DNA of 64,000 nucleotides, taken from contig JACQWX010000005.1 in NCBI GenBank assembly GCA_016209035.1, positions 6,688-70,687 of the forward strand, read 5' to 3'. Under the pieces are notes generated by a model. That model saw only the letters and a list, made by a program, of their open reading frames with translations. It was not told the origin of the DNA and made no database searches. Numbering within the stretch: the first letter of the stretch is position 1; every line of letters begins with the position of its first letter. The DNA is from Elusimicrobiota bacterium (lineage in GTDB: Bacteria > Elusimicrobiota > Elusimicrobia > UBA1565 > UBA9628). This document shows, piece after piece, positions 9,399 through 40,331 of the stretch. A program made the translations under genes and the position numbers.

Positions 9399-9404
9399 AT
9401 GAGC

Positions 9405-9433: not shown

Positions 9434-9436
9434 GTG

Positions 9437-9448: not shown

Positions 9449-9450
9449 GC

Positions 9451-9480: not shown

Positions 9481-9486
9481 AAACTT

Positions 9487-9549
9487 AGAATCTGAACTGA
9501 AGAACGACTAGACCTTACTTTGCCTAGCCCCCGTTTGGGGGCTTTTTTT
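9487..9549 (+). ncRNA. candidate ~60-nt small RNA (promoter-to-terminator unit with no ORF)
   Basis: Starts about 7 nt after the TATAAT and ends at the intrinsic terminator 9527-9549. No plausible ORF inside. Confidence 0.35.
9527..9549 (+). terminator. rho-independent terminator GCCCCCgtttGGGGGC plus T7
   Basis: 6-bp GC stem, 4-nt loop, TTTTTTT run. The T-run overlaps the stop codon of the convergent NYN gene. Confidence 0.6.
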
Positions 9550-10351: not shown

Positions 10352-10556
10352 AGGGACTTCCTCCTGAAATTACCTTGTGAAGTTCAATGAGAACTTCATT
10401 AAGGTATTTTACCACAATCCACGCCTCGCACATTTGTAATTTCTGCGTCGAATCCTAGTTGACGTGTCTCTCCGGCTTTCGCCGTTTCCGCACCGCATCT
10501 TCCGACTTGAGCGACTCGGGGGGAGGAAGGTAGGCTGTGGTCTGAGGTGCTGCGCC

Positions 10557-10859
10557 ATGATGCGAAGCGAACCGAAAGAAAGGATCACCGTCGGGGCGGC
10601 GAAGGCGCTACTGGCCCGGGCCAAGCAGGCCTACGAGGTCGGAGACGTCCTCACGGCCCACAGGCTGGCGGTCAAGGCGTTGCTCTGGGCCAACGACTGC
10701 CTGCATTCGCTCCAGTTGAGGAAGGCGGCGTTCAGGGACAACACCCTGTACGTCAGGAAACTCGGGCTGGGGCCGAAGGGGAAGGGCTGGAGCGTGACCG
10801 GCGCGGCCCGGGACGGCAAGTCCCTGGTGTGGACCCGGCCGGCGCGCAAGCCTCGGTAA
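10557..10859 (+). CDS. hypothetical basic protein
   Basis: MMRSEPKERITVGAAKALLARAKQAYEVGDVLTAHRLAVKALLWANDCLHSLQLRK...; protein-like composition. Confidence 0.35.
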   Translation: MMRSEPKERITVGAAKALLARAKQAYEVGDVLTAHRLAVKALLWANDCLHSLQLRKAAFRDNTLYVRKLGLGPKGKGWSVTGAARDGKSLVWTRPARKPR

Positions 10860-10916
10860 TTCGCAAGCCTTCGCCATTCTTGGCCGCCTCCTGCGTCGGT
10901 ATGGGCAGGGGGCGGC

Positions 10917-11159
10917 ATGGACTACCTGCTCAAGGACCCGGACGAGATGTCGCCAGGGGAGCGGCTGGATGCTCTGGCCGAGGTCCTGGCTGAGGGTTTC
11001 GTCTACCTGGCCGCAAACGGACTCCTGGACGACGTGCTCGGGAAAGTGGCCGAAGCGGGGCAGGGGGAATCCGCGAAGAAGGCCGCGGAATCGCCTTGCT
11101 TTCCAGCCGAACACCGTCTATCCTTCCTTCCTGACAAGGGAGGTGGACCGAGCGAATGA
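10917..11159 (+). CDS. small acidic protein translationally coupled (ATGA) to the serine recombinase; candidate recombination directionality factor
   Basis: MDYLLKDPDEMSPGERLDALAEVLAEGFVYLAANGLLDDVLGKVAEAG...; its stop overlaps the integrase ATG. Confidence 0.4.
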   Translation: MDYLLKDPDEMSPGERLDALAEVLAEGFVYLAANGLLDDVLGKVAEAGQGESAKKAAESPCFPAEHRLSFLPDKGGGPSE

Positions 11160-17031: not shown

Positions 17032-17196
17032 GGACTTTGCTCCTCCTGCCTGATTTTCTGGAACCATTATCCGAAAGTCGCCTGCATGGCTGGATGGGTC
17101 CAGAGGGGAGATTCCAGGAGGATTTGGGCCTACGGTGATTTGCACCGACTGCCAGGCGAGGTCCCAGAAACCTCGGGCCTTGGGTCCTGGGTGCGC

Positions 17197-24954: not shown

Positions 24955-25301
24955 CTTCCGGAAGGCATGTACCGGATGTCGTCGACTTCGTAGACGGAGA
25001 GCCGCATCCTCTTGGAGGCTCTCTTCAGGATGCCTTTGAGCTCGGCGATTGACAGCCTCCCGTTGGCCTTGACCGTGATGACCACGGTCTGCTGCTCGAA
25101 ATCGGCCTCTGCCTTCGTGATCATGGGGTGGCGGGAGAACTCGGCCTGGATGGCCCTGCCGCAGGCATGGGTGAGCATCCCCTTGATCTTGATGAGATAG
25201 GGCCCGGGGGTCAGGTCCTTGTAGAGCTCCTTGGGCAGCGGGGCTCCAAGGGCGCCGGTCGTCGACAGAAGGCATGCGAGGAGGGCCGATCTCTTTAGCA
25301 T
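24951..25301 (-). CDS. small secreted protein with HMA-like (beta-alpha-beta-beta-alpha-beta) pattern but only one Cys
   Basis: Signal peptide MLKRSALLACLLSTTGALGA; GMLTHACGRAIQAEF...VVITVKANG; stop overlaps the YfhO start (ATGA). Confidence 0.5.
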   Translation of the reverse strand: MLKRSALLACLLSTTGALGAPLPKELYKDLTPGPYLIKIKGMLTHACGRAIQAEFSRHPMITKAEADFEQQTVVITVKANGRLSIAELKGILKRASKRMRLSVYEVDDIRYMPSGR

Positions 25302-25372
25302 GGCGAGATTATATCACAGAGATGCCAGGCATTGACTTCTTTGACTTCTCCGGCCTCACTTTCTGGAAAGTG

Positions 25373-25401
25373 TTGACAGAACGAGATTCTTCCGATAAAC
25401 T
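25373..25401 (+). promoter_or_regulatory. sigma70-like promoter TTGACA-17-TAAACT upstream of the kinase gene
   Basis: gtgTTGACAgaacgagattcttccgaTAAACT; the -10 ends 10 nt before the ATG at 25412. Confidence 0.4.
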
Positions 25402-25411
25402 ACTTCCTCAC

Positions 25412-28400
25412 ATGGGCAAGAAAGGTTGGGTGATGGACTTGGTCATCGGGCTCCTCCTGAGCCTTTTCGTGGCGGCCTGCTACCTGCTTCCTCCGGTCCT
25501 GCCGTTCATCGAAGCGCTCGAGCTCAAGTCGTTCGACATGCGCTCCACCTGGAGGCAGACCGCGGAACCTTCCCGCGAGATCGTCCTGGTGTCCATCGAC
25601 GATTCCGCGTTGGCGCAGGTCGGGCGCTGGCCCTGGCCCAGGTGGCGCATCGCGGCCCTGGTGGACAAGCTCTCCGGGGCGGGCTCCAAGGTCATCGGCC
25701 TCAACATCCTGCTCTCCGAGGAGGAGCAGAACGAGGGTTTGAAGGAGATCCAGAGGCTCCAGTCCCAGTACGAGGCGTTCGTCGCGTCCCGCAACATCGT
25801 CGAGAGGGGGGTCGCCTTCAGCGCGGAGTTCTCGTCCGCCGCGGTCCGGCTCGACACGGACTCTCGCCTGCTGGCCTCCATCCAAGGGGCAGGGAACGTG
25901 GTCCTGCCCATGTTCTTCGATCTTGGCGGGCTGGCCAAGCCCGAGCCGCTGCCGGCCGCGGTCTCGAGCTCGGTGGTGACCTACGCGGTGGTGCAGGGCT
26001 CCCAGGAATCCGAGATTCCGGACGGGAGCAAGGCCACCTACCCCATCGTCAGGCTCGCCGAGGCCGCGGCGGGCGTGGGGCACGTGAACGTCTACAGCGA
26101 CATCGACGGCTCGGTCCGGCGCGAGATCCCGGTCGTCAAGTACGGCGAGAGCTACTACCCGTCCTACGCCCTGAGGCTGATCATGGCCTACATGGGGCTG
26201 CCCACGACGGACGCGGTCTTCACCCCCGGGGTGAGGCTGCAGGCGGGCAAACTCGAGGTCCCGCTCGACTCGTCCAACGGGATGCTCGTCTCGTTCGTGG
26301 GCCCGGTGGGGACCTTCCAGTCCTACTCCTATCGGGAGGTGATGAAGGAGGATTTTCCGACGGACACCTTCAAGGGGAAGATCGTCATCGTCGGCCTCAC
26401 CGCCGCCGGGGTGGGGACCCTCTACGTCACGCCCGCGGCCCCTGCCCTCCCTTCCATCGAGCTGACCGCCAACGTCATCGAGAACATCCTCAACCGCAGG
26501 TTCCTGACCAGGCCGCCGTGGGCCGCGCGGGCCGAGCTCGGGCTCCTGGGGCTCGTCGCCCTGTTCCTGATGGTCGTCTACCCGAGGCTCAAGGCCTTGT
26601 GGGGCAACCTCCTGGCCCTCGTGCTCCTGATCTGCATCCCGACCGGCGGCTTCTTCCTCTTCCAGCAGGGCCTCTGGCTCAAGGTCACCTACCCGGTGAC
26701 GCTCCTGTTCTGCGGGTGTCTGGTCAGCCTCGCGCGCAGGCTCATCGGAACCGAGAAGGGCAAGGAGCTCGTGGAGGCCTCGGCCATCGAGCAGGCCCGG
26801 ATGCTGGGACTCTCCTTCCAGGGGCAGGGCATGCTTGACATGGCCTTCGACAAGTTCCGCCAGTGTCCCGTCGACGACAACCTCAAGGACGCCCTCTACA
26901 ACCTGGCCCTGGACTTCGAGCGCAAGCGCCAGTACGCCAAGGCCGTCTCGGTGATGGAGCACATCGCGGTCACGGACCCCGCGTACAAGGACATTCCGGA
27001 GAAGATGAAGCTCCTTAAGGCGGCCAGCGAAGGCGCGGTCTTCGGCGGCGTGGGCCAGTCGAAGAAGGAGGGCACGGTCCTCATCACCGGCGGGGCGACC
27101 AAGCCCACCCTGGGCCGCTACGAGATCGAGAAGGAGCTCGGGCGCGGCGCCATGGGCGTCGTCTACCTCGGCCGCGACCCCAAGATCAACCGCATGGTCG
27201 CCATCAAGACCATGATGATGGAGGAGGGCACCGACGCCGCGGCCGCCAAGGAGATCAAGGAGCGCTTCTTCCGCGAGGCCGAGTCCGCGGGCACCCTCAA
27301 CCACCCCAACATCATCCGCATCTTCGACGCGGGCGAGGAATCCGACGTATGCTACATCGCGATGGAGCTCCTCGAGGGCAACGACCTGACGCAGTTCACG
27401 GCCAAGGACAAGCTCCTGCCGCCCGTCCAGACCATGGAGTACGTCGCCCTGGTGGCGGACGCCCTGGACTTCGCCCATGCCCAGGGCATCGTGCACCGCG
27501 ACATCAAGCCGGCCAACATCATGCTGCTCAAGGACGGCACCATCCGCGTGGCGGATTTCGGCATCGCGCGCATCACCGCCTCCTCCAAGACCGCGACCGG
27601 CACGATCATGGGCACCCCGTCCTACATGAGCCCGGAGCAGGTGGCGGGCAAGAAGGTGGACGGCCGGTCCGACCTGTTCTCGCTCACCGTCGCGCTCTAT
27701 GAGTTCCTGACCGGCGAGAAGCCTTTCAAGGGCGGCGAGGGGATCGGCACGCTCCTCTTCCAGATCGCCAACGACCCCCATCCCGACCCCGTGACCATCA
27801 GGGGTGACCTGCCTCCCGGCATCAAGCCGATCATCGACAAGGGGCTGGCCAAGAACCCGGATCAGCGCTATGCCCGGGGTTCCCTCATGGCCGCGGATTT
27901 GCGCGCGCTGATCGCGGCGATCAAGTCAGGAAAGCCGACCGGGCCCGCTGACCCGGCCTCCGGCCGGGCGCCCCCGGCCCCCGCGGTCCAGGCTCCGCAG
28001 GCAGTGCCGCCGCTCCCTCCGCCCGAGGCCCCGCTGACGCAGGTCGTGGAGACGCCGCCGTCAGCCCCGATCAAGATTCCCGCGTTCGTGGGCGAGGACT
28101 CGTCTTCCGGATTGGCGCATCTTCTTGCGGCCGCGTCGGCCGCGCCGGCTCGGTCGCCCAGCGAGGTGACGGATCCGGGCATTCCCCTGGCTCCTGCCCG
28201 AGAAAGGAAGGCTGCGGAAATCCCGTCTCTAGAGCCCCCTGTCGAGGCGGCTCCGACGCCTGAGCCGGTGGTGGAAGCTCCGGCGCCCGAGCCCGCGCTT
28301 GAGCCTGCTCCCGCGGTCGAGCCGGCCCCGGAGCCCGGTGCCCCGGCGTATTCGGCCGCGGAAGAGGAGACCATCGTGATGGCGCCCGGCAGCATCCCGG

Positions 28401-28792
28401 TGATCTCGCCGGAGCTGATGAACGCGCCTGCGCCTGAGCCCGCCCCGGCGGTCGAGCCGGCCCCGGAGGCGCCCCCGACGGTCGAGATGCCCCCGGTCTG
28501 CGAGCCTGCGGGTGAAGGCGAATTCAAGATCGCGTTGGAGCCCCGTGCGACTCTCAAGCCGGCTTCGAAGCCGGAAACAGCCCCCACCGCCCTGCCGGGG
28601 CCGGTGCCTCCTCCGCCTTCTGCCGGTGAGCAGCCGTCGTCTGATTCGGAGTTCAAGATCGTGCTGGAGCCGCGGGCGACCATCAAGTCCGAGCCCGAAG
28701 CGGGCCCGCCGGCGCCGTCCTCGGACAAGACCGTCGTGCTTCCGCCGGGGTGGAAGCCGCCCGGGACGCCCGCGGAGGAGAAACCGGCATGA
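25412..28792 (+). CDS. CHASE2 extracellular sensor fused to a Hanks-type Ser/Thr protein kinase with a Pro/Ala/Glu-rich repetitive tail
   Basis: CHASE2 region VSIDDSALAQVGRWPWPR; TM segments; kinase motifs GRGAMGVVYLG...VAIK, HRDIKPANIML, DFGIA, GTPSYMSPE. Tail repeats: APAPEPA(L)EPAPAVEPAPE twice and EFKI(A/V)LEPRAT(L/I)K twice. Start could also be 25433. Confidence 0.8.
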   Translation: MGKKGWVMDLVIGLLLSLFVAACYLLPPVLPFIEALELKSFDMRSTWRQTAEPSREIVLVSIDDSALAQVGRWPWPRWRIAALVDKLSGAGSKVIGLNILLSEEEQNEGLKEIQRLQSQYEAFVASRNIVERGVAFSAEFSSAAVRLDTDSRLLASIQGAGNVVLPMFFDLGGLAKPEPLPAAVSSSVVTYAVVQGSQESEIPDGSKATYPIVRLAEAAAGVGHVNVYSDIDGSVRREIPVVKYGESYYPSYALRLIMAYMGLPTTDAVFTPGVRLQAGKLEVPLDSSNGMLVSFVGPVGTFQSYSYREVMKEDFPTDTFKGKIVIVGLTAAGVGTLYVTPAAPALPSIELTANVIENILNRRFLTRPPWAARAELGLLGLVALFLMVVYPRLKALWGNLLALVLLICIPTGGFFLFQQGLWLKVTYPVTLLFCGCLVSLARRLIGTEKGKELVEASAIEQARMLGLSFQGQGMLDMAFDKFRQCPVDDNLKDALYNLALDFERKRQYAKAVSVMEHIAVTDPAYKDIPEKMKLLKAASEGAVFGGVGQSKKEGTVLITGGATKPTLGRYEIEKELGRGAMGVVYLGRDPKINRMVAIKTMMMEEGTDAAAAKEIKERFFREAESAGTLNHPNIIRIFDAGEESDVCYIAMELLEGNDLTQFTAKDKLLPPVQTMEYVALVADALDFAHAQGIVHRDIKPANIMLLKDGTIRVADFGIARITASSKTATGTIMGTPSYMSPEQVAGKKVDGRSDLFSLTVALYEFLTGEKPFKGGEGIGTLLFQIANDPHPDPVTIRGDLPPGIKPIIDKGLAKNPDQRYARGSLMAADLRALIAAIKSGKPTGPADPASGRAPPAPAVQAPQAVPPLPPPEAPLTQVVETPPSAPIKIPAFVGEDSSSGLAHLLAAASAAPARSPSEVTDPGIPLAPARERKAAEIPSLEPPVEAAPTPEPVVEAPAPEPALEPAPAVEPAPEPGAPAYSAAEEETIVMAPGSIPVISPELMNAPAPEPAPAVEPAPEAPPTVEMPPVCEPAGEGEFKIALEPRATLKPASKPETAPTALPGPVPPPPSAGEQPSSDSEFKIVLEPRATIKSEPEAGPPAPSSDKTVVLPPGWKPPGTPAEEKPA

Positions 28793-29616
28793 CGAAGTCT
28801 TCCCTCGAGACCTGGGGGCGGACGGACCGCGGGTGCGTGCGCGAGGTGAACGAGGACAACCTCATCATCGATGACGACATCGGCCTGCTGGCGGTGGCCG
28901 ATGGGATGGGCGGGCACAACGCCGGTGAGGTGGCCAGCTCCATCGCGGTCTCCCAGATCCGCGACCTCGCCCGGAGGGCTCTCGGCGGGACCCAGGACAT
29001 CGTCCCGGAGGGCCCCAACCCGAACCTTTCTCGGCGCGGGCGGCAGCTCGAATGGTTTGTCAAGAACGCGAACACCATCATCTTCAAGAAGGGGCGCGAG
29101 GCGGCGAAGCAGTACGGGATGGGCACGACCGTCGTGGCCGTCCTCGCCGACGGGCGCTCGCTCACCGTCGCCCATGTCGGCGACAGCCGTCTCTACCTCT
29201 TCAGGAAGGGCGCGCTAACCCAGCTCACGGAGGACCATTCCCTGGTCAGCGACCAGGTGCGCAAAGGGCTCCTGACCGCGGACGAGGCGTCGCGCTCGAC
29301 CTTGCAGAACATCCTCACCCGGGCGCTGGGGACCGAGGAGGACGTCCAGGTGGACGTCGCGGACCATCCCCTGCTGGAGGGGGACGTCCTTCTGCTCGCC
29401 TCGGACGGGCTGACCAAGGAAGTGACGGAGGAGCAGATCAGGCGCACGATCGAGAAAAACCCCTCGCCGAACGCCTTCGTGGACCGGCTGGTGGACATGG
29501 CCCGCGACCACGGCGGGCACGACAACATCACGGTGGTCGCGTGCCGCGTGCCTTCGCCGGGCTGGCGGCAGGTGATCGAGGGTCTCAAGAAGATGGTGTT
29601 GGGGAGAGGTGCTTGA
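28788..29616 (+). CDS. PP2C-family Ser/Thr phosphatase
   Basis: LAVADGMGGHNAGEVAS...DNITVVA; ATGA overlap with the kinase stop. Confidence 0.85.
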
Positions 29617-29620
29617 TCCC

Positions 29621-30361
29621 ATGCCAAAATTCCTCCTGAAATTCAACGCTGCGGTCATCAAAGAGGTCCCGATGGCCAAGGAGAGCCTCACGGTGGGCCG
29701 CAAGGCGGACAACGACGTCGTCATCGACAACCCGGCCGTTTCCGGGCACCACTGCAAGATCAGCGTGCAGGGCGGCACCTGTTTCGTGGAGGACCTCGAT
29801 TCCACGAACGGCACCTACGTCAACGAGAAGCGGATCAAGAAGGCCGGGCTGCACCACAACGACGTCGTCGGGGTCGCCCGGCACGCCCTCGTCTTCATCG
29901 AAGACACCGTTCCCATCGATCCGGCCGCTGCCCCGGCGCCCAAGTCCGCGGACGCCACCGTGGCGATCCCTCCCGAGAAGCAGGCTGAGATCGCCGCGGC
30001 GCAGGCCGCGACGCAGGAGGCCAGCCAGAAGCTTGGGGTCCTCAAGGTCCTCAAGGGCGAGGTGGGAGCGAAAGAATACGAGCTCAAGGGCATGTCCACC
30101 TACCTCGGCAAGTCCGACCGGGTGCAGGTGCCCATCAAGGGCTCGGGCCTCTTCGGGTCGGCTCCCGAGGTGGCCGCCTCCATCCACCGCAAGCCCGACG
30201 GGTACTACCTGCTGGCCATAGAGGAGGGCTACCCGGCCGTCAATGGGGTCAAGGTCTCCGGGAGCATGCTCCTCAAGGACGGCGACCTCATCGAATGCGG
30301 AGGGACGACGATCCAGTTCAACCTCAAGGATATCCGTCCCGACGCCACGAAGGCCCCGTAG
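29621..30361 (+). CDS. protein with two FHA domains
   Basis: LTVGRKADNDVVIDNPAVSGHHCKI...STNGTYVNEKRI and a second LGKSDRVQVPI...GYPAVNGVKVSGSMLLKDGDLIECGG; RBS GGGGAGAGG. Confidence 0.75.
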   Translation: MPKFLLKFNAAVIKEVPMAKESLTVGRKADNDVVIDNPAVSGHHCKISVQGGTCFVEDLDSTNGTYVNEKRIKKAGLHHNDVVGVARHALVFIEDTVPIDPAAAPAPKSADATVAIPPEKQAEIAAAQAATQEASQKLGVLKVLKGEVGAKEYELKGMSTYLGKSDRVQVPIKGSGLFGSAPEVAASIHRKPDGYYLLAIEEGYPAVNGVKVSGSMLLKDGDLIECGGTTIQFNLKDIRPDATKAP

Positions 30362-31149: not shown

Positions 31150-31177
31150 TTGACAACCAGCGGATTCCTGTTATACT
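31150..31177 (+). promoter_or_regulatory. sigma70 promoter TTGACA-16-TATACT with a ~160-nt structured leader
   Basis: cccTTGACAaccagcggattcctgtTATACT; the leader contains a cUUCGg hairpin CUCCCuucgGGGAG. Confidence 0.45.
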
Positions 31178-31344: not shown

Positions 31345-32157
31345 ATGGCCAATCATGAGGCCAAGGGCCAGGCCCTTGGGCAGATTCGCCGTCCTGCAGC
31401 GGCCCTGTCAGCCGCGGCAGGATTCTTTTTTGGGGCGCTGGCCTTGACGCCGTCCCAGACCTTCGGCCGCGAGGTCGGCGGACAAGTCGGCTCCTTCCTG
31501 TTCTACGGCGTCGGCGGCCGGGCACTGGCCATGGGCGGCGCCTACTACGGCATCTCCGACGACGCCAGCGCGGTCTACTGGAACCCTGCGGGCTTGACCC
31601 TCCTCCAGCGCAAGGAGGTCACCCTGATGCAGGCGACGCTGCCCACCGAGGCGAAGATGATGTTCTTCAGCTACGCCCACCCGACGAAGAAGGGGAGCGT
31701 CTTCGGGGTCGGCATGACGCAGATGAGCGCGAGCGGCTTCGAGAAGGTCGACGTGGTCTACGACCCGGACGACCTCACCCAGGAGCGGACGGTCAGCCGG
31801 GCCGGCTCGTTCGACGCCAAGGAGCAGGCCATGGCCTTCGCCTGGGGCAAGAACATCACCGAGACCCTGGCCTTCGGCCTGACCCTCAAGCAGGTTACCC
31901 GCGCCCTGGGCGGCAAGTCGGATAACAACAAGACCCTCGACGTCGGCATGATGAAGGGCATGGGCCCGTACTACCGTGTCGGGTTCGGCATCCAGAACGT
32001 GTTCGCGCTGCGCAAGGGAGAGACCGACGACCGGCTCCCCGTGGTCGTCCGGGTCGGCAACTCCTTCCGGTTCTTCAAGGACCGGCTCACCATCGCGCTG
32101 GACGCGACCAAGCCCATGACCGGCGACGTGGACGTGCGCTTCGGCGGGGAGTACTAG
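31345..32157 (+). CDS. outer-membrane beta-barrel protein, PorV/UPF0164-like, N-terminal part; ends at an in-frame TAG
   Basis: Signal peptide, then GGRALAMGGAYYGISDDASAVYWNPAGL signature; ends ...VDVRFGGEY*. Confidence 0.6.
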   Translation: MANHEAKGQALGQIRRPAAALSAAAGFFFGALALTPSQTFGREVGGQVGSFLFYGVGGRALAMGGAYYGISDDASAVYWNPAGLTLLQRKEVTLMQATLPTEAKMMFFSYAHPTKKGSVFGVGMTQMSASGFEKVDVVYDPDDLTQERTVSRAGSFDAKEQAMAFAWGKNITETLAFGLTLKQVTRALGGKSDNNKTLDVGMMKGMGPYYRVGFGIQNVFALRKGETDDRLPVVVRVGNSFRFFKDRLTIALDATKPMTGDVDVRFGGEY

Positions 32158-32973
32158 GTGGTGCGGTGGTTCGCCTTCCGGTTCGGGCTCATGGGCATCC
32201 CGGACATCCAGGAGACCGACTTCGGGTTCGGGCTGAAGTTCAACAGCTTCAGCCTCGACATCGCCCAGGGCATCCACGACCTCGGCGCTTCCGCGAGCAC
32301 CAGGATGGGGGTCTCCTTCCGGTTCGGCCAGTCCAAGGAGGACCGGGCGAGCATCCAGGTCCGCGAGTTCGTCGGCCAGGGCCAGGAGGCCTTCACCGAG
32401 GGCAACTTCGCGCTCGCGGCCCAGAAGCTCAACTTGGCCATCGACGCCCAGCCCGGCAACAAGCAGGTCGAGGCCATGCTCGCGCGCGTGATGGCCGCCA
32501 CCTCCTTCGTGCCGCAGGCCATGGGCGGCGAGGAAATCCAGAGCCACGTGCGCAAGGGCGTCATCTCCTACGTGGACGGCAGGGACCTGCGCAACTCCGT
32601 CAACGCCCTGCGCCACGCCTTCAACAAGAACGTCAAGGACGAGAAGGTCCTGGGCCTGCTGAACATGGTGGAGAAGGAGGCGGGCGTGGTCGAGATCACC
32701 CGCCGCATCGACGGGCCCGAGCAGTTCACCTGGGTGGACCAGAAGATCTTCGACGCCCGGCAGTCCGTCTACGACGGCAAATACGACATGGCGGTCCGGC
32801 GCAGCCAGGACGTCCTCGACCTCGAGCCCAACAACATCACCGCTTTGGAGGTCATGGGGAGCGGCTTCTTCATGATGGAGCGGAAGGAGAAGGCGCTCGC
32901 CGTCTGGCGGCGGGTCCTGGAGCTCGACCCGAACAACCAGGCGGTCAAGGAGTTCATCCAGAGGCTGAAGTAA
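32158..32973 (+). CDS. beta-strand continuation plus TPR domain; in the same frame as the preceding ORF and separated from it only by TAG
   Basis: (GTG)VRWFAFRFGLMGIPDIQETDFGFGLKFNSFSLDIAQ... then TPR-like FVGQGQEAFTEGNFALAAQKLNLAIDAQP...; (32158-31345) is a multiple of 3. Confidence 0.5.
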   Translation: MVRWFAFRFGLMGIPDIQETDFGFGLKFNSFSLDIAQGIHDLGASASTRMGVSFRFGQSKEDRASIQVREFVGQGQEAFTEGNFALAAQKLNLAIDAQPGNKQVEAMLARVMAATSFVPQAMGGEEIQSHVRKGVISYVDGRDLRNSVNALRHAFNKNVKDEKVLGLLNMVEKEAGVVEITRRIDGPEQFTWVDQKIFDARQSVYDGKYDMAVRRSQDVLDLEPNNITALEVMGSGFFMMERKEKALAVWRRVLELDPNNQAVKEFIQRLK

Positions 32974-33068: not shown

Positions 33069-35057
33069 ATGGCTTACACTTTCATCCGCATGGCAAGCTC
33101 CATGCCGTACATGGTCATGATGGCCTTCGTCGCCGCCGCGGCAGCGGCTGGGGGCGGATCCGGGATCCAGTCTCCCGACCTGGGGCTCCTGCAGGAGCAG
33201 AACCGCATCAAGGCCGAATCCGAGTCGAAGATCCAGCGCGACATCCTCGACCCCATGCTCGGGGAGGGGAAGGCCAAGGTCTTCGTCGACGTGGAGATGG
33301 AGGTCAAGATCGAGCGCGAGGAGGCCAAGCGCAGCGGCCTGGGCTTGGCGGAGCGCTACAAGGAGAAGCAGGGCGCTCAGAAGGGCCTGGGCGCCGACAC
33401 CCTCTACGTCCTGCCCGGGATCCCCAAGCCCAAGACCATCAGCCAGGGCCTCAGCACCGACAAGCCCGAGTCCCTGCTCGCCCGGCAATCGGAGCAGACC
33501 AAGGGCATCGAGGAGGAGCGCTACGCCCAGAAGCCGGTCTTCAAGCGGATGGAGGTCAAGGTCTTACACGACGCCACGGTGCTGACGACCGCGGTTGAGC
33601 AGAAGCCCGTGCGGGACAGCATCGTCGACGCGATGGGGCAGTACCAGCTCACGCAGGACCAGGTGGTCTTCAGGGCCATGAAGTTCAATAGGGTCCTCAT
33701 CAACTGGGTCGACGACCTCAAGAAGCCTTCGGTCTACCTCCCGCTCCTCTACGCGTTCCTGCTGCTCCTGCTGCTGTTGTTCCTGTTCGGGCCGCTGGCC
33801 CGGTTCCTGCGCCAGTACGTGGCCGCCCTGAGAGAGAAGCCCGCGGCCGAGGTCAACGTCGAGTCGAAGATGGAAGCTCCGGAAGAGAAGGGGAAGGAGG
33901 AAGAGGGCTTGAATGAGGGCGCGCTCGACATCACCCTCCAAAGAAAGCCCTCCGAGTCGCAGGAGGACGAGTCCATGAAGAAATTCGAGCCCTTCTCCTA
34001 CATCAACGAGGAGAACATCAAGAGGCTGGTCTACATGTTCCTCCTGCGCAAGGAGGAGCCCTGGATCATCGCGGTGGTGGCCAGCTACCTGCGGCCCGAG
34101 TTCGCCCGGGCCCTTCTGACCGCGCTGCCGGTCGAGCTCCAGTCCAAGGTGGCCCTGGAAGCCCTCACGGTGCGATCGTTGACCAAGGAGCAGGTGCAGG
34201 CCATCGACGGCGAAATCAAGGAGAAGGTGGATTTCGTGGTGGGAGGGATCGAGCGGCTGGTCTCCATGCTCGACGAGGCCGACGTCGCGACCCGCAACAA
34301 CATCCTCAACTACCTCAAAGACGAAAAGCCTTCCTTGTACGAGAAGGTCCGGAAGTTCATCATGATCTTCGACGACATCGTCGGGTTCTCGGACCGCGAC
34401 GTCCAGACCATCGTGCGCGAGCTCAAGCCCGACAGCATGGCCAAGGCCCTCCAGAACGCCTCGCCCGAACTGGTCAACAAGTTCTTCTCGAACATGTCCG
34501 CCGGCGCGGGGAGCCTCCTGAGGGAGGCCATGGAGTACGTCACGGGCCTGACCGAGGAAAAGATCGAGGAGGAGAGGTCCAAGATCATCGAGACCGTAAA
34601 GGTGCTCGACAAGGAGGGCAGGATCGCGGTGCGGGCCAAGGTCGACGAGAGCATGGGGTTCGAGGCCCTGCAGGAGGAGCTCTCCTCCCGTGAGAGGCGC
34701 GAGCGCTCAGGCCCCGGGCCTTCGGCCCAGGCCGCGGCCCCGGCGCCGTCCGCGGGGCCTGCGCCCGCGCCTCAGGCGGTCGTGCCCGAAGAACAGGCCG
34801 CGCAGGCGCAAGGCTATCTCCAGAGCGGCATCTCCTATCACGACTCCGGGCAGCTGGATGCCGCCGTCCAGTACCTCGAATACGCGTTGACGCTGGACCC
34901 TTCGCTGTGGCAGGCGCACCAGTATCTGGGGGGCATCTGCTATCAGATGGGGCGGACCGCCGAGGCCCTGACGCACTACGAGAGACTCTTGGAGCTCCAT
35001 CCCGACCCTCAGATGCAGCAGTGGGTGGAGAGCTTCAAGTCCCAGGCAGGTAAATGA
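33069..35057 (+). CDS. fusion protein: signal/TM, a periplasmic FliF-like region, a second TM, cytoplasmic FliG middle and C-terminal domains, and C-terminal TPR
   Basis: TM2 LPLLYAFLLLLLLLFLFGPLARFL. FliG-like block: EENIKRLVYMFLLRKEEPWIIAVVASYLRPEFARALLTALP...LTKEQVQAIDGEI...IMIFDDIVGFSDRDVQTIVRELKPDSMAKALQNASPELVNKFFSNMSAGAGSLLREAMEY. TPR at the end. The N-terminal 300 aa of the track ORF are junk. Confidence 0.7.
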   Translation: MAYTFIRMASSMPYMVMMAFVAAAAAAGGGSGIQSPDLGLLQEQNRIKAESESKIQRDILDPMLGEGKAKVFVDVEMEVKIEREEAKRSGLGLAERYKEKQGAQKGLGADTLYVLPGIPKPKTISQGLSTDKPESLLARQSEQTKGIEEERYAQKPVFKRMEVKVLHDATVLTTAVEQKPVRDSIVDAMGQYQLTQDQVVFRAMKFNRVLINWVDDLKKPSVYLPLLYAFLLLLLLLFLFGPLARFLRQYVAALREKPAAEVNVESKMEAPEEKGKEEEGLNEGALDITLQRKPSESQEDESMKKFEPFSYINEENIKRLVYMFLLRKEEPWIIAVVASYLRPEFARALLTALPVELQSKVALEALTVRSLTKEQVQAIDGEIKEKVDFVVGGIERLVSMLDEADVATRNNILNYLKDEKPSLYEKVRKFIMIFDDIVGFSDRDVQTIVRELKPDSMAKALQNASPELVNKFFSNMSAGAGSLLREAMEYVTGLTEEKIEEERSKIIETVKVLDKEGRIAVRAKVDESMGFEALQEELSSRERRERSGPGPSAQAAAPAPSAGPAPAPQAVVPEEQAAQAQGYLQSGISYHDSGQLDAAVQYLEYALTLDPSLWQAHQYLGGICYQMGRTAEALTHYERLLELHPDPQMQQWVESFKSQAGK

Positions 35058-37075
35058 CCATGGCCGACGAACGACAACACGATCCCAACGAACCGGTGCC
35101 GCCTCCCTTGCCGCCCTTCGCGGGGCGCCCCGGCCAGCCGCCGCCTCTTCCAGGGGGCCAGCCTCCGGGGGCGCCGCCGCCTGCCCTGCCGGGCCCTCCG
35201 CCTTCGGTGCCGCTTTCGCTGCCTTCCGGTTTTCCTCCACCCGGCACGGCGCCCATGCCTTCGGTGCCGCAGGTGCCGCCTCCCGGCCCCGCGTCCATGG
35301 CGCCCGCGCCAGGACGGTTACCCCCGCCGCCTGGTCCTGCGCCCATGGCGCAGGCGCCTCAGACGCCCAGGCCGCCGGCCGCGCCCTTCGCTCCGATGAT
35401 GCCCGCCAGGGGCGTGGCGTCTCCGCCCGCCCCGCCCTTCGCAGCGGCGCCGGCGCCGCAGGCGCAGCCGCCGAAGGGGACGGACCCCGCGGCCGTCAAG
35501 GAGGAATACGAGAGGAAGCTGGCCGCGATGGAGAAGCGCCTGCAGGAGGAGCGGGAGAAGGTCCTCCTCGCCAACCTCAAGAGCCAGTCTGAGGCCGCGA
35601 CCGCGGCCAAGGTCGAGGTCGCCATCAAAGAGCTGCAGGACAAGATCCGCCGGGATCGGCGCGACCAGGAGTCCGAGGAGCTCAAGCACAAGCTCGACAC
35701 GAGGGTGGTTGAGCTCGAGACCAGGCTCGCCCAGGAGCGCGAGACCTGGCTCGTGACCCTCAAGAACCAGATGACCCAGCGCGAGGTCCAGGACAAGGAC
35801 TTCGAGTCCCAGCTCGCCGGGCGGCTCCAGGAGATGGAGCGGCGTTGGCTGGAGGAGAAGGCGGTCTGGCAGAAGACGGTAGGCGCCAAGGACGACGAGA
35901 TCCGCAACCTCAGGAACCTCGCGGAGAAGCTCAAGGGGGTCGAGGTCGAATGGGGGAAGGTATCGAGCGAGAAGAAGAACCTCGAGGAGAGGCTGGCCGA
36001 ACTCGTGAAGGAGAAGGCCGACTCCCAGCTCAAGGCGCAGAAGGGGCTGGAGGCCGAGAAGGAGGCGATCGGGCTTCGCGCCGAGCTCTCCGTGGCGAGG
36101 CAGCAGCTCGCCTCGGTGTCGGAGAGGCTCGAGCGCGACCTTCAGGCCATGCGCCAGTCGGCGCGGGAGCGGGAGGACCGGCTGACCTACGAGGTGGACC
36201 GGCTGCAGCGGGAGCTCTCGGGCCTGGGCCAGCGCATGAGGATGGAGCACGAGGCCGAGCTCAAGCGGGCCAAGGACCAGGGCGAGTCCGAGAAGAGCCA
36301 ATATAAGGAAAAGGCGGACAAGTCCGCGGCGGACGTCGCGAAGCTCAAGGCCATCCTGGCCGCCATGGAGCGGCAGGCCGCGATGAGCCGCGCCCAGGTC
36401 ATGCAGCTGCGCAAGTCGGCGTCCGAGTGGGAGAAGACCCAGGAGCACTACAAGGCCGAGTTCGTGGTGCTCCAGAGGCGCTGGGCCGACCGGGAGCGGG
36501 AGATCCGCTCCGAGGTCGAGGCGAACCTTTCCCGGGTCTTCGCGGCGGACATGGACAAGGCCCGGGCGGTGTTCGAGGAGAGGCTCAAGAAGGAGACCGA
36601 GGCCCTCAACGAGAAGACGGGCTCCCAGGGCCGCGAAGCCATGATGGAGAAGGAGAAGGAGATCATGGCCCTGCAGCGGACCATCGAGGATCTCTCCAAG
36701 GCGAAGACCGGCGAGGAGGAGGAGAAGCGCTCGACCAAGGCCGCCTTGGAGGAGTCCCAGCGCGGCTCTCGGGAGGGCGCCGCCAGGCTCGATGCGTCCC
36801 TTCGGACCCTCCAGGAGGAGGCGGGCGCGCTCAAGGCCGACCTGGCCGACGCCCGCGAGAGGCTCGAGATCGCGGAGAAGGCCGGGGCCTCGATGGCCTC
36901 GGAGAAGTCCGAGCTCCAGCGTCTCTCCATGGCCCAGGCCGCGGAGATCAAGAACATGCAGGACGCCTTCTTCGGCCTGCGCGGCCAGCTCGCCAAGGAC
37001 GCCCAGTTGGCGAAGTCCTTCATGGAGGAGCGGGAGAGGCTGGAGAGGCGGATCAGGGAGCTGGAGGGGAGATGA
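35054..37075 (+). CDS. proline-rich N-terminus followed by a ~480-aa coiled-coil protein
   Basis: PPPLPPFAGRPGQPPPLPGG... then heptad-rich EEYERKLAAMEKRLQEEREKVLLANLKSQ...; ATGA overlaps at both ends. Confidence 0.65.
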   Translation: MTMADERQHDPNEPVPPPLPPFAGRPGQPPPLPGGQPPGAPPPALPGPPPSVPLSLPSGFPPPGTAPMPSVPQVPPPGPASMAPAPGRLPPPPGPAPMAQAPQTPRPPAAPFAPMMPARGVASPPAPPFAAAPAPQAQPPKGTDPAAVKEEYERKLAAMEKRLQEEREKVLLANLKSQSEAATAAKVEVAIKELQDKIRRDRRDQESEELKHKLDTRVVELETRLAQERETWLVTLKNQMTQREVQDKDFESQLAGRLQEMERRWLEEKAVWQKTVGAKDDEIRNLRNLAEKLKGVEVEWGKVSSEKKNLEERLAELVKEKADSQLKAQKGLEAEKEAIGLRAELSVARQQLASVSERLERDLQAMRQSAREREDRLTYEVDRLQRELSGLGQRMRMEHEAELKRAKDQGESEKSQYKEKADKSAADVAKLKAILAAMERQAAMSRAQVMQLRKSASEWEKTQEHYKAEFVVLQRRWADREREIRSEVEANLSRVFAADMDKARAVFEERLKKETEALNEKTGSQGREAMMEKEKEIMALQRTIEDLSKAKTGEEEEKRSTKAALEESQRGSREGAARLDASLRTLQEEAGALKADLADARERLEIAEKAGASMASEKSELQRLSMAQAAEIKNMQDAFFGLRGQLAKDAQLAKSFMEERERLERRIRELEGR

Positions 37076-37299
37076 TCTCGCTCCACAAGCTCAACGGCGC
37101 CCAATTCGTCCTCAACGCGGAGCTCATCGAGAGCGTCGAGCCCGGGCAGTCCCAGTGCCTGGTGTGCCTTGCGACCAGCAACAAGTTCGTGGTCAGGGAA
37201 TCGGCGGAGGAGGTCGTCCAAAAGGTGATAGAATACCGAAAGAAGGTCAACGCCGAGGCCAAGGTGGTCAACCCCATCGCCGGCTTCAAGAGGGAGTGA
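37072..37299 (+). CDS. flbD: FlbD-family protein (small flagellar/stator-associated protein)
   Basis: MISLHKLNGAQFVLNAELIESVEPG...LATSNKFVVRESAEEVVQKVIEYRKKV fits the FlbD pattern MI.LTRLNG..F.lN.dLIE.iee.pDTvI.LtnGkk.vVkEs.eEvi.KiieYkr. Confidence 0.7.
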   Translation: MISLHKLNGAQFVLNAELIESVEPGQSQCLVCLATSNKFVVRESAEEVVQKVIEYRKKVNAEAKVVNPIAGFKRE

Positions 37300-37303
37300 T
37301 CCG

Positions 37304-38089
37304 ATGGACATTGCGACCGTGATGGGCATCATCGTCTTCATGGGCCTGGCCGTGACCGCGATCTTCATCCAGGAGGGGAAGGCGGGCTTCGTCCCGTTCC
37401 TGAATTTGGAGGCGTTCCTCCTCATCGCGGGCGGGACCTTCTGCTCCACCCTGGTGAACTACCCCTTGAAGCAGATCGTGGGCCTCGGCAGGATCCTGCG
37501 CAAGGTGCTCTTGAGCTCGGGAGAGGAGACCGCCGACATCGTGGGGACTTTCGTGAGCCTCTCGCAGAAGGCCAAGAAGGAAGGCTTCCTGGCGCTCCAG
37601 GCCGACGTGAGCGCCCTCAAGGACGACTTCATGCGCCGCGCCGTCCAGCTCGTCATCGACGGCCAGGACCAGGAGTTCATCCGCTCCATGCTCGAGACCG
37701 AGATCGGCTTCATCCGGGAGCGCCACAAGGTCGGCCAGGAGATCTTCAACGCCATGGGCACCTATTCCCCGGCCTTCGGCATCATCGGCACGGTCCTGGC
37801 CATGATCCTGATGCTCTCCAGCATCTCCGACGTCTCGGCGGTGCCGCGGCGCATGGCCTTGGCCCTGGCGTCCGCCTTCTACGGGCTGACCGCCGGCTAC
37901 CTCGTGTTCCTGCCCATGGGAGGCAAGCTCAGGCGCCGCTCGGAGGAGGAGCTCCTGGTCAAGGAGATCGTCATCCGCGGGGTCCTGCTCCTGCAGAGCA
38001 ACGCCACCCCCAGCGTCGTGGAAGCGAACCTCAAGGCCTACCTCGAGCCCGCCAAGAGGACGAGCGTGAAGGGGACGGCCGGAGCTTGA
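37304..38089 (+). CDS. motA: MotA/PomA-family stator protein (MotA/TolQ/ExbB superfamily)
   Basis: 4-TM pattern; ...AFGIIGTVLAMILMLSSISD...FYGLTAGYLVFLPMGGKL; the FlbD-MotA-MotB order supports MotA. Confidence 0.8.
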   Translation: MDIATVMGIIVFMGLAVTAIFIQEGKAGFVPFLNLEAFLLIAGGTFCSTLVNYPLKQIVGLGRILRKVLLSSGEETADIVGTFVSLSQKAKKEGFLALQADVSALKDDFMRRAVQLVIDGQDQEFIRSMLETEIGFIRERHKVGQEIFNAMGTYSPAFGIIGTVLAMILMLSSISDVSAVPRRMALALASAFYGLTAGYLVFLPMGGKLRRRSEEELLVKEIVIRGVLLLQSNATPSVVEANLKAYLEPAKRTSVKGTAGA

Positions 38090-38095
38090 TCCCCC

Positions 38096-38920
38096 ATGTC
38101 TCTGCGAGCCCCGAAGGGATTCATCGACGAGTCGGACCCCAAGGTCTGCCAGATCGGGCACCCGGCTCCGCCCTGGCTGGTCAACTACGCCGACCTCATG
38201 ACCGAGATGGTCTGCTTCTTCGTGATCCTCTACGCCCTCTCGGCCGCGCTCAACAAGGATGTGCAGGACGCGAAGTCCAGGGTCGAGAAGATGATGCAGA
38301 AGGGCCAGATGAAGGGCGAGGTGAAGATCGACCAGGAGGGCTTGAAGATATCCCTGGAGGAGGAGGGCAAGATGTCCTTCTTTGAGAGCGGCTCCGCGGA
38401 CCTCACCCCCGGCATGAAGGAGATCCTCGTCAAGCTCTCCCCCATCCTGATGAAGCTGACGGGCAAGCAGGACATCATTATCGAGGGGCACACGGACAAC
38501 AAGTACATCTCCAACGACTACTTCGATTCCAATTGGGAGCTCTCGACGGCCCGCGCCACCAATGTCGTGCGCACCCTGATCGACAAGCACGGGTTCCCGC
38601 CCAACAAAATGGCGGCCATGGGCTACGGCGAGTTCCGGCCCCAGGCGCCGAACGACTCGCCGGACAACATGGCCAAGAACCGCAGGGTCGTCTTCTTCGT
38701 GAAGAACGTTCCGTTCAAGGCCGAGGAACCCAAGCCGGAGAAGGCTCCGCCCATGACGCCCAAGGAACGCGTCGGGCGTCAGGACGGGCCGGCTGCCGCC
38801 GGCCCGCCAGGGGAGGCCCCGGCCGCCGACGTCGTTCCGGAAGGCCAGGGCGCCGCTCCCGCCGGTGAGGCGAGCCCTGAGGAGGCCCCGCCCATGGCGC
38901 CCGAGGAGTCACCGCAATGA
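38096..38920 (+). CDS. motB: MotB-family stator protein with OmpA-like peptidoglycan-binding domain
   Basis: PWLVNYADLMTEMVCFFVILYA (MotB TM with conserved Asp in YADLMT); OmpA-like IIIEGHTDNKYISNDYFDSNWELSTARATNV...GYGEFRP. Confidence 0.8.
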   Translation: MSLRAPKGFIDESDPKVCQIGHPAPPWLVNYADLMTEMVCFFVILYALSAALNKDVQDAKSRVEKMMQKGQMKGEVKIDQEGLKISLEEEGKMSFFESGSADLTPGMKEILVKLSPILMKLTGKQDIIIEGHTDNKYISNDYFDSNWELSTARATNVVRTLIDKHGFPPNKMAAMGYGEFRPQAPNDSPDNMAKNRRVVFFVKNVPFKAEEPKPEKAPPMTPKERVGRQDGPAAAGPPGEAPAADVVPEGQGAAPAGEASPEEAPPMAPEESPQ

Positions 38921-39756
38921 ACGCACCACCTGATGGTCGTCGCCGGCCGCCGACGCCCTTTCTGAGGGCGGCCGGGACCTGGCCCTCCAATATCCTGGAA
39001 GGCCAGGGCCTCCGGCCTCGACCGCGTCGATGGCTGGGCGCGACGGCTTGCGCCGCCGCCGCCGTCTTGTGCGTGGCGGCGGCCGGCTGCACCGGGATGA
39101 GGATGGGCCGGGGGGCGAAGAAGGTCGTCAGCGAGGACTTCGCCGAAGGGCGCGTGGTGGACGTGTCGATCACGGAGAGGATCACCGGGAACCGCGAGAT
39201 GCTCTTCATGTCCATGCCCAGGAAGACCCTCTTCCTCGACGGCTACATCCAGGGCGTCATCACCGACTACCTGGACAATCCGGTGCAGGGCGTGGTGGTC
39301 CGGGCCGTGGCCGTGGGCGAGGGGGCTCAGAAGGAGGAGACCGGGGAGCGGCGGTCGGGCTTCGCCGGCAGCTCCTTCGACCCCGGGGTGAGCGACACCA
39401 ACGGCTTCTACCGCATCCGGTTCAGCCTGCCCATTATCGACGGCGTCGTCGACGTCCGTGGCCGCGTCCTCTACAGCCCGGGCTGGGAGCAGGAGAGGGA
39501 CAACCTGGGCAAGGCCTACGAGCCCCAGCAGAAGCAGAGCCAGTTCCGCGTCTACTACGAGCTCAAGCGCGCCCGCATCACCTTCACCGAGGGCATCCGC
39601 AAGACGGTCGTGGCGCCCGTCACCAGCGGTGCGCCGCCCAAGGCCGCCGCCCTGCCCAGCGCGGGCAAGCCCGCCGTGGAGAAGGCGCCGGGCGCCCCGG
39701 CGGAGGGAGGCGGCGATGAGGACCTCTTCAAAGGTTTCGGGTTCGAGGGTCCCTAA
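38917..39756 (+). CDS. lipoprotein (CarboxypepD_reg-like fold possible)
   Basis: Lipobox ...AAAVLCVAAAGC; TNGFYRIRFSLP; overlaps the motB stop. Confidence 0.5.
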   Translation: MNAPPDGRRRPPTPFLRAAGTWPSNILEGQGLRPRPRRWLGATACAAAAVLCVAAAGCTGMRMGRGAKKVVSEDFAEGRVVDVSITERITGNREMLFMSMPRKTLFLDGYIQGVITDYLDNPVQGVVVRAVAVGEGAQKEETGERRSGFAGSSFDPGVSDTNGFYRIRFSLPIIDGVVDVRGRVLYSPGWEQERDNLGKAYEPQQKQSQFRVYYELKRARITFTEGIRKTVVAPVTSGAPPKAAALPSAGKPAVEKAPGAPAEGGGDEDLFKGFGFEGP

Positions 39757-39757: not shown

Positions 39758-39863
39758 GGTGTCAGGCATCAAGTTATCAAGTTGTTGGCCTTGTTCCGGA
39801 GGCTGACATCCGCGCCCATAACTTGATAGACTTGAAGAACTTGATAACTTGATGCCTGACACC
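39758..39863. repeat. 26-bp perfect inverted repeat flanking a 54-nt loop; tandem 8-mer iterons ATCAAGTT/AACTTGAT (6 copies); AT-rich
   Basis: Left arm ggtgtcaggcATCAAGTTATCAAGTT (39758-39783). Right arm AACTTGATAACTTGATgcctgacacc (39838-39863). The loop holds AACTTGATagACTTGAag. Confidence 0.7.
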
Positions 39864-39881
39864 GGAGGAATTGTGAAAGGG

Positions 39882-40331
39882 ATGGCATGCGTGGCGGCGT
39901 TGGCGCTCCTGGCCGGCTGCCAGACCATCGGCGAGGAGCGGCCTGCGGTGGAGCTCGACCAGGAGGCTACCGATGTGGACTTCCAGGTCAAGGAGAGCAA
40001 GGCGCTCTCGCATCTGGCCAAGCTCGAGACGGCCGTCGCGGACTACTACAAGATCGAGCACAAGGTCCCGGCCAAGTTGACCGACCTCATCCCCAAGTAT
40101 CTCGCCGACATCCCAATCGTCGAGATCGTGGGGGCCAGGCACAAGGACACCAGCGCGGTCCAGTACTATCCCGGCGACATCATCCTGGACGGCCGCATCG
40201 ATGGGACCCGGTTGAAGGACTCCGGGAGGTGGGGCTACGCCTACACGGAGAAGCAGGTCATCATCTTCATCGACTGCACCCACCGGAACCCCAAGGGCCT
40301 CCCTTGGTACCAGGCGCGGGGGATCTACTAG
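39882..40331 (+). CDS. small lipoprotein
   Basis: MACVAALALLAGCQTIGE...; RBS GGAGG at 39864-39868. Confidence 0.5.
   Translation: MACVAALALLAGCQTIGEERPAVELDQEATDVDFQVKESKALSHLAKLETAVADYYKIEHKVPAKLTDLIPKYLADIPIVEIVGARHKDTSAVQYYPGDIILDGRIDGTRLKDSGRWGYAYTEKQVIIFIDCTHRNPKGLPWYQARGIY

Follow-up and report, generated by a model that had tools for sequence, protein, structure and literature searches.

A FliF-like, FliG and tetratricopeptide-repeat fusion protein of Elusimicrobiota, encoded with FlbD, MotA and MotB, as a candidate rotor of a flagellum-independent envelope machine

A long-standing question about the origin of the flagellar motor is whether its rotor-stator pair can work apart from type III export, rod and filament. 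The question is raised here by one gene, at positions 33069-35057 of a 64,000-nucleotide stretch of the genome of an Elusimicrobiota bacterium (GenBank assembly GCA_016209035.1, contig JACQWX010000005.1, positions 6,688 to 70,687; this whole stretch is called the window below), whose product joins a FliF-like periplasmic domain, the middle and C-terminal domains of FliG (FliG_M and FliG_C) and tetratricopeptide repeats (TPR) in a single polypeptide. We found that a phylum reported to be largely without flagella keeps a compact operon in which this piece of the FliF S-ring, fused to FliG_M and FliG_C, is accompanied by FlbD, MotA, MotB and non-flagellar envelope partners. On balance, and with considerable reserve, we favor a reading in which the fusion serves as rotor subunit in a proton-driven envelope machine that works independently of a flagellum.

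Architecture, distribution and selection of the fusion

The fusion and its parts, including the ring-building motif (RBM) and the transmembrane (TM) helix, are laid out as follows:

33069-35057, + strand: the whole FliF(RBM3)-TM-FliG(M,C)-TPR fusion, 662 amino acids (aa), an open reading frame from the ATG at 33069 to the stop codon ending at 35057
33069-33158, + strand: aa 1-30, N-terminal signal peptide or first TM segment (hydropathy scan; Ala-rich, signal-peptide-like ends in orthologs)
33174-33686, + strand: aa 36-206, periplasmic FliF RBM3-type ring-building motif (helix-strand-insertion-strand-helix-strand)
33729-33803, + strand: aa 221-245, TM helix with an invariant LFGPL motif and basic residues on the cytoplasmic side after the helix (hydropathy, family alignment, AlphaFold2 model)
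33978-34268, + strand: aa 304-400, FliG middle domain, from an invariant KKFxPFxYI motif (Pfam, family alignment, match to Thermotoga maritima FliG)
34314-34634, + strand: aa 416-522, FliG C-terminal domain (Pfam FliG_C, 86.6 bits; PDB 1lkv and 3ajc)
34494-34553, + strand: aa 476-495, equivalent of the torque helix, MSAGAGSLLREAMEYVTGLT (alignment to T. maritima FliG; family column counts)
34794-35018, + strand: aa 576-650, cytoplasmic C-terminal TPR repeats (Pfam, family alignment)

Codon-position GC around the fusion was as in real genes of this window, whose GC is ~67%, and Met8, where most orthologs begin, offers an alternative start. A hydropathy scan placed two hydrophobic segments, aa 15-33 and aa 222-240, on either side of the FliF-like region, the first of which resembles a cleavable signal peptide in orthologs. 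Because the basic residues come after the second segment, the N-terminal domain is predicted to be periplasmic and the FliG and TPR parts cytoplasmic. TPR_1 and TPR_2 were found above the Pfam cut-off at aa 580-648, in agreement with the C-terminal TPR of a first-pass annotation made from the sequence. That annotation had listed five parts, namely a signal or TM segment, a periplasmic domain, a TM helix, FliG_M with FliG_C, and a TPR, and all were recovered in this order from the open reading frame, Pfam and the hydropathy scan; the periplasmic stretch, which it had put at ~230 aa, measured ~190 aa (aa 30-220). Orthologs are currently annotated "tetratricopeptide repeat protein", "FliG C-terminal domain-containing protein" or "flagellar motor switch protein FliG", routine labels that the present finding corrects.

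The fusion is widespread. More than 120 full-length relatives of 640-690 aa, 53-77% identical to it, were retrieved from many independent assemblies, and all named relatives are labelled Elusimicrobia or Elusimicrobiota. In a scan of one genome per species, the fusion was present in at least 127 species-level Elusimicrobiota genomes, including a complete chromosome of 3.8 Mb, and a homology search seeded from the Elusimicrobiales branch with an Elusimicrobiaceae ortholog yielded hundreds of further clusters. Versions of 473-545 aa without the TPR also occur in the phylum, including in Endomicrobiales. Because the same layout recurs on independent assemblies, among the orthologs, in the 127 genomes and at syntenic loci, an assembly chimera is excluded; the fusion is natural, as the first-pass annotation had supposed, and the orthologs that it had suggested looking for are spread across Elusimicrobiota. 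Compared with its three closest orthologs by the Nei-Gojobori method, the gene gave a ratio of nonsynonymous to synonymous substitution rates (dN/dS) of 0.24-0.31 overall and of at most 0.41 in every segment, and many residues are invariant in every domain across the family. These sequence comparisons indicate that the fusion is under purifying selection.

The FliF-like domain, the FliG part and the torque helix

The N-terminal domain of the fusion is homologous to FliF RBM3, on which Pfam, a profile search of 1.84 billion proteins, an AlphaFold2 (AF2) model and Foldseek agree. The Pfam model PF08345 (YscJ_FliF_C) matched over its whole 147-position profile at aa 60-206 with 20.9 bits, just below the cut-off of 23.8 bits (a shortfall of 1-3 bits for the fusion of the window); it was matched by 11 of 15 family members, with a best E of 8e-6, and relatives without the TPR exceeded the cut-off (P0253, 46.5 bits; P0227, 34.3 bits). 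A profile of aa 1-262 was run against a library of 1.84 billion representative proteins, with E-values for the whole library, and matched the canonical FliF proteins P0234 (residues 231-439 of 562, E 3.9e-5) and P0243 (residues 239-462 of 530, E 1.2e-4) over the stretch from RBM3 through the second TM helix. Both carry PF01514 and PF08345, and one of the two, P0234 of an Oscillospiraceae bacterium, is annotated FliF. In the AF2 model of the domain, which had a mean predicted local distance difference test score (pLDDT) of 70, helix 38-64 is followed by strands 69-83 and 152-167, helix 175-192 and strand 199-205, and the top 18 Foldseek matches of this model were all FliF ring structures, mostly RBM3/collar or S-ring. 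An insertion of ~65 residues (aa 84-150), modelled at low confidence, comes after the first strand, the place that the beta-collar occupies in FliF. A PDB sequence-profile search with the N-terminal 262 aa returned neither FliF nor SctJ and only a chance match to rhodopsin (E ~1); the similarity to FliF is hence a remote one.

The resemblance to FliF or SctJ that the first-pass annotation had proposed for this region is thus borne out by PF08345 in 11 of the 15 members and by canonical FliF proteins at E 4e-5, and the part covered is RBM3/collar and the second TM helix. No match to PF01514, the SctJ-homology region RBM1-RBM2, was obtained in the fusion or in the 15 family members, and only ~35 residues lie ahead of the RBM3-like helix; from the absence of RBM1 and RBM2 it follows that the domain represents the S-ring part of FliF only. 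The C-terminal cytoplasmic tail of FliF, which binds the N-terminal domain of FliG (FliG_N) non-covalently, is absent as well, with a covalent link to FliG_M in its place.

Two other proteins share parts of this region. The N-terminus of P0181, a 333-aa member of the MotA_ExbB family from an Elusimicrobia metagenome-assembled genome (MAG), matches the periplasmic helix region of the fusion (profile positions 31-94), and P0225 (851 aa) matches profile positions 146-248, the second RBM half through the TM helix, followed by a long coiled coil. These matches suggest that the periplasmic domain may have been shuffled further.

In the FliG part, both domains claimed in the first-pass annotation stood. 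FliG_M (PF14841) scored 42.2 bits at aa 325-388, against a cut-off of 25, and FliG_C (PF01706) scored 86.6 bits at aa 416-520, against a cut-off of 23.3; aa 287-544 aligned with the T. maritima FliG structures 3ajc (E 1.3e-32) and 1lkv (E 2.5e-32). The NCBIfam FliG model TIGR00207 gave 102.8 bits, against an equivalog cut-off of 226.7. Since its match starts only at profile position 112, the fusion has no FliG_N, for which the Pfam scan (PF14842) gave only a match of E 0.056 on the wrong region; the TM helix and an acidic linker directly precede FliG_M. The Gly-Gly hinge of FliG (FVVGG) is retained, and so are its hydrophobic core motifs. The EHPQR motif, the FliM-binding motif of FliG_M, is absent: the fusion reads E-(E/D)-P-W...E, with Glu364 at the Arg position.

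We then compared the torque helix and the MotA encoded in the same operon. Of the five canonical charged residues on and near the helix (K264, R281, D288, D289 and R297 in E. coli FliG), one is kept: the equivalent of D288 is the invariant E486, and K264, R281, D289 and R297 are replaced by uncharged residues. The window fusion has G479 at R281, A487 at D289 and T495 at R297; by family column counts, K264 is Q or A, R281 a nearly invariant G, D289 S, A or I, and R297 T, S or N. The torque-helix charges that the first-pass annotation had put up for checking are therefore conserved at a single position. The canonical MotA/FliG charge pairs are R90 with D288-D289 and E98 with R281. In the MotA of this family, the position of R90 is an invariant Lys (K91 in the window), so that the charge is kept, and the position of E98 (99 in the window) is Q in 53 and E in 12 of 65 sequences; the lost MotA E98 charge matches the lost FliG R281. 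The signature of K...Q in MotA and G...E in FliG was also found in a relative only 30-35% identical, and so in both deep branches. MotA has changed in correspondence with FliG: one charge pair is lost on both sides and the other is strictly kept, as continued contact between stator and rotor would predict.

The operon and its genomic setting

The other features of the operon in the window are as follows, with neighboring genes counted in 81 loci and gene order compared in 80 related species-level loci:

31150-31177, + strand: sigma-70-like promoter candidate, TTGACA-16-TATACT, 11 of 12 matches (consensus match only)
31345-32973, + strand: PorV/PorQ-like outer-membrane beta-barrel with periplasmic TPR, split by an in-frame TAG (NCBIfam PorV_fam, Pfam TPR)
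35054-37075, + strand: 673-aa protein with a Pro-rich N-terminus (~150 aa) and a long coiled coil, no TM segment; its start overlaps the fusion stop
37072-37299, + strand: FlbD, 75 aa (Pfam FlbD, 67.2 bits, E 9e-19; present in 70 of 81 loci)
37304-38089, + strand: flagellar-type MotA, 261 aa (PDB matches, Pfam PF01618)
38096-38920, + strand: MotB, 274 aa, with plug, channel Asp (YAD33LMT) and OmpA-like peptidoglycan-binding domain (PF13677, PF00691)
38917-39756, + strand: predicted lipoprotein, 279 aa, lipobox AAAGC; its start overlaps the motB stop (present in 57 of 81 loci)

In loci that are long enough, the order of barrel-TPR, fusion, Pro-rich coiled coil, FlbD, MotA, MotB and lipoprotein is near-constant. 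In the window, the genes from 33069 to 39756 overlap or lie less than 10 nucleotides apart, and the best promoter-like site of the module precedes the barrel gene, its first gene. The barrel protein scored 87.3 bits on NCBIfam PorV_fam, below the cut-off of 90, together with a Pfam TPR match; barrel and TPR form one open reading frame in orthologs (520 aa as called in locus L001), and upstream of the fusion the barrel half was found in 73 of the loci and the TPR half in 77. No match named as a type IX secretion system (T9SS) core component occurred among the genes scanned in the window or listed for L001 and L082. The coiled-coil gene, present in 74 loci, varies from 425 to 947 aa between species; its product is most conserved at aa ~150-300, with a Trp-containing segment (...ERETWL...RRWLEEKAVWQK...), and the N-terminal PPPLPP motif is conserved too. 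Neither this protein nor the 279-aa lipoprotein, nor a second lipoprotein described below, had a match in Pfam or NCBIfam, and the AF2 model of the 279-aa lipoprotein, built on a 28-sequence alignment, was unusable (pLDDT 56).

MotA, with four TM helices and the cytoplasmic rotor-contact domain, gave full-length PDB matches to 8ucs and 6ysf (E 6e-49; Clostridium MotA structure) and to PomA (E 1e-42), and the YADLMT motif of MotB is conserved in all loci that carry MotB. As the NCBIfam equivalog cut-offs were missed (212 vs 394), MotA/MotB is a divergent member of its family. That the operon has FlbD, keeps the order FlbD-MotA-MotB and gives its best FliG and MotA matches to proteins of the Thermotoga/Clostridium type suggests derivation of the module from a set of flagellar genes, with an ancestral origin the less likely alternative. 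In a more distant relative, L082 (30% identity, 499 aa, without the TPR), the PorV-TPR gene, fusion, MotA, two MotB paralogs and the coiled-coil gene still occur together, with the three stator genes moved to the opposite strand. Upstream of the PorV-TPR gene of that locus (L082:1341-15843) lies a 2329-aa protein with DUF2341, BNR-like and FlgD_ig-like matches, which one might imagine, by way of speculation, as surface cargo.

Could the operon be what remains of a flagellum that was lost, decaying and without function? Most of the phylum lacks flagella, several canonical motifs have degenerated and the neighboring PorV-like gene of this assembly carries a premature stop. The data already contradict such a reading, which we regard as very improbable: the protein is intact and full-length in no fewer than 127 genomes, counted one per species, every domain has many invariant residues, dN/dS is 0.24-0.31, the operon order is conserved, and parts (TPR, PorV-like partner, coiled coil) were gained.

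Several side observations concern the surroundings of the operon. Downstream, positions 39849-40331 encode the second predicted lipoprotein (160 aa, lipobox LLAGC), with a weak promoter-like site at 39803-39832; a homolog occurs in 31 of the 81 loci, usually ~3 kb past the module. Positions 25274-30361, immediately before the module, encode a CHASE2-Ser/Thr kinase (1172 aa), a PP2C phosphatase and an FHA-domain protein. In ~9 of the 80 related loci, PP2C and FHA genes lie no more than 10 kb upstream, and a regulatory link to the module is possible though unproven. Elsewhere in the window, a mobile-element-like block spans 839-12985, with a Prim-Pol/D5 primase-helicase (839-2935), a ResIII helicase (2932-4611), an AAA_24 ATPase (5098-5907) and a PD-(D/E)XK nuclease (5943-6734) on the - strand and a large serine recombinase (11156-12985) on the + strand; GC is ~0.60 at 8-12 kb, against ~0.67 elsewhere in the window. 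The open reading frame at 13114-17145 (- strand, 1343 aa) has gene-like codon statistics and no Pfam match.

A proposed rotor and the alternatives

Compared with the flagellar MS-ring/C-ring rotor, the fusion is alike in having an RBM3/collar-type periplasmic domain followed by a TM helix, and FliG_M and FliG_C joined by a Gly-Gly hinge; the flagellar-type MotA and the MotB with plug, Asp and peptidoglycan-binding domain likewise resemble the flagellar MotA5B2 stator, and the FlbD-MotA-MotB order is also that of spirochaete and Firmicute flagellar operons. The fusion is unlike that rotor in having neither RBM1/RBM2 nor FliG_N nor EHPQR, in keeping one of five torque-helix charges, in its extra C-terminal TPR, in the absence of FliM/FliN, export apparatus, rod, hook and filament genes nearby, and in operon partners that comprise a PorV-like barrel-TPR, a Pro-rich coiled coil and a lipoprotein.

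An ordinary component of a flagellated organism in which FliF and FliG happen to be fused is an improbable explanation. It would draw on the few complete flagellar gene sets of the phylum, on the existence of some Elusimicrobia-labelled flagellins and on the engineered FliF-FliG fusion strains that still build motor rings. RBM1 and RBM2, which form the inner part of the MS-ring around the export gate, are missing (no PF01514 match), the FliM-binding EHPQR motif is lost, and none of the operon partners (PorV-like barrel, coiled coil, lipoprotein) is a flagellar protein. No other flagellar or type III secretion system (T3SS) genes were found among the genes scanned in the 64-kb window, and none in the gene lists within ±10 kb of L001 and L082. 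A 2022 preprint on magnetotactic Elusimicrobiota also argues against it, reporting that complete sets of flagellar genes occur in only a small number of genomes of the phylum and that most free-living Elusimicrobiota have no structural flagellar genes yet have motAB, flbD and fliG, whose role it calls "enigmatic". The preprint gives no description of the FliF-like domain, fusion or operon, and our literature searches found none of fusion or operon beyond its remark on motAB/flbD/fliG.

The closest natural precedent is the FliF–FliG fusion of the non-flagellated Chlamydiaceae (CT719 family, ~330 aa; Bergeron 2016, PMC4768692), which has an SctJ-RBM2-like unit, a second RBM-like unit, a second TM segment near residue 250 and a cytoplasmic FliG_M-like region only (PMC4768692). 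The two fusions share a signal or TM segment, a short periplasmic RBM-like region, a second TM helix and a cytoplasmic FliG-like part, whereas that of Elusimicrobiota has an RBM3/collar, complete FliG_M and FliG_C, a TPR and its own MotAB/FlbD. A natural FliF–FliG fusion in Chlamydiaceae and the retention of motAB/flbD/fliG in flagellum-less Elusimicrobiota are thus already known; the full architecture is new, and so is the operon dedicated to it, which occurs across the phylum and combines MotAB/FlbD with envelope partners that are not flagellar.

The chlamydial layout, with a weak match to the chlamydial NCBIfam model, might point to a T3SS accessory, as proposed for the fusion of Chlamydia, and the match of MotB to ZorB models, with a long coiled coil reminiscent of the ZorA tail, to an anti-phage system of the Zorya kind based on a MotAB homolog. 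We give these two readings together very little credence. The chlamydial model PRK05934 gave 18.7 bits on the window fusion, against a cut-off of 297 (E 7.6e-4, ~45 residues of FliG_M only), and T3SS genes are absent from the window and the loci examined; MotA, the fusion and the coiled-coil protein matched no PADLOC model, which leaves a generic MotB/ZorB similarity. Zorya or another defence system was accordingly rejected as a candidate, MotB alone (as ZorB) having matched PADLOC models.

Engineered FliF–FliG fusions of Salmonella and Vibrio (PDB 8z4d, 8z4g) bear on the covalent arrangement. The Vibrio fusion proteins assemble MS-rings, which have been purified and solved, and C rings still form in Salmonella strains with fused FliF and FliG, among them one whose fusion has lost most of FliG_N through a deletion. 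Like the fusion described here, these are covalent 1:1 unions of FliF and FliG, the Salmonella deletion fusion also being without most of FliG_N, and a Vibrio fusion structure was matched both by the FliG part and by the N-terminal model of the window fusion; unlike it, they are laboratory constructs in complete flagella, with full-length FliF from RBM1 to RBM3.

For the rotor that we favor, we propose the following. The FliF-RBM3-like periplasmic domain would oligomerize into an S-ring-like ring in the inner membrane, and a single TM helix would tie each ring subunit covalently, 1:1, to a cytoplasmic unit of FliG_M and FliG_C, so that the FliF tail and FliG_N could be dispensed with. MotB would anchor the MotA/MotB stator, encoded three genes downstream, to peptidoglycan, and the stator would push on the altered helix of FliG_C by way of the single charge pair that persists, MotA K91 and FliG E486. 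Because RBM1/2, FliG_N, EHPQR, FliM/FliN, export apparatus, rod, hook and filament are absent, the output could not be a flagellum; the likely targets of the ring would be the partners from the same operon, that is, the PorV-like barrel with its periplasmic TPR, the lipoprotein and/or the cytoplasmic coiled-coil protein. The Pro-rich coiled-coil protein could dock on the C-terminal TPR of the fusion.

The non-flagellar 5:2 ion-driven motors (GldLM/PorLM of T9SS, ExbBD-TonB, TolQR, AglRQS and ZorAB) likewise use a proton-driven, stator-type unit to energize an outer-membrane or surface process, and the operon includes a PorV/PorQ-like barrel. Those motors have no FliG or FliF ring, whereas the MotA of the operon belongs to the flagellar clade, with a rotor-contact domain and no ZorA match.

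Several considerations count against a rotor. With four of the five canonical torque-helix charges lost, it is not assured that FliG engages MotA. A ring without a rod has no obvious way to deliver work, and the insertion of the RBM3-like domain is modelled at a confidence too low for a collar or ring to be demonstrated. The machine is a prediction from gene sequences. No cultured carrier occurs among the named matches, and the Elusimicrobiaceae-seeded search gave proteins of MAGs only. A few Elusimicrobiota have complete flagellar sets according to the 2022 preprint, and our census of flagellar genes covers the window and the listed loci. Finally, the barrel gene of this assembly has an in-frame TAG at 32155-32157 (TGG to TAG), where all 10 orthologs read have a Trp codon (RFGGEYW-VARWFAFRFG); it may be a real nonsense mutation in the population or an error of the MAG consensus.

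The main rival to the rotor is a static energizing platform, in which the fusion would be a fixed inner-membrane scaffold whose FliG part does no more than recruit MotAB, and the proton-driven MotA pentamer would work on the envelope in the manner of Tol-Pal or TonB, with the barrel/TPR protein or the coiled-coil protein as its target. We consider it unlikely, although it is the most serious of the alternatives. The absence of a rod or axle and the loss of most torque-helix charges would suit it, as would the TPR modules on both the fusion and its outer-membrane partner; the conserved outer-membrane barrel and lipoprotein also suggest a trans-envelope assembly. What speaks against it is that MotA is flagellar-type, with a rotor-contacting cytoplasmic domain, and not of the ExbB/TolQ type, and that strict conservation extends to FliG_C, its helix and one complementary charge pair, as expected if force still reaches FliG.

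As a larger and more tentative proposal, which we hold to be possible but doubtful, the operon would encode a new rotary nanomachine, a FliF-RBM3/FliG ring turned by MotAB and assisted by FlbD, without type III export, rod or filament, coupled through TPR to a PorV-like barrel and a coiled coil, and driving a process at the surface or in the envelope, for instance gliding, secretion or remodelling of the envelope. If this is true, it would mark the first case in nature of the flagellar torque generator at work as an independent module, and would bear directly on the question of whether the evolutionary origins of motor and export apparatus are separable. The operon would further provide a natural minimal system for ring assembly from a single polypeptide with 1:1 FliF:FliG stoichiometry, for the minimal electrostatics of stator-rotor coupling, with one charge pair kept and one lost on both sides, and for what else a MotAB-driven ring can power.

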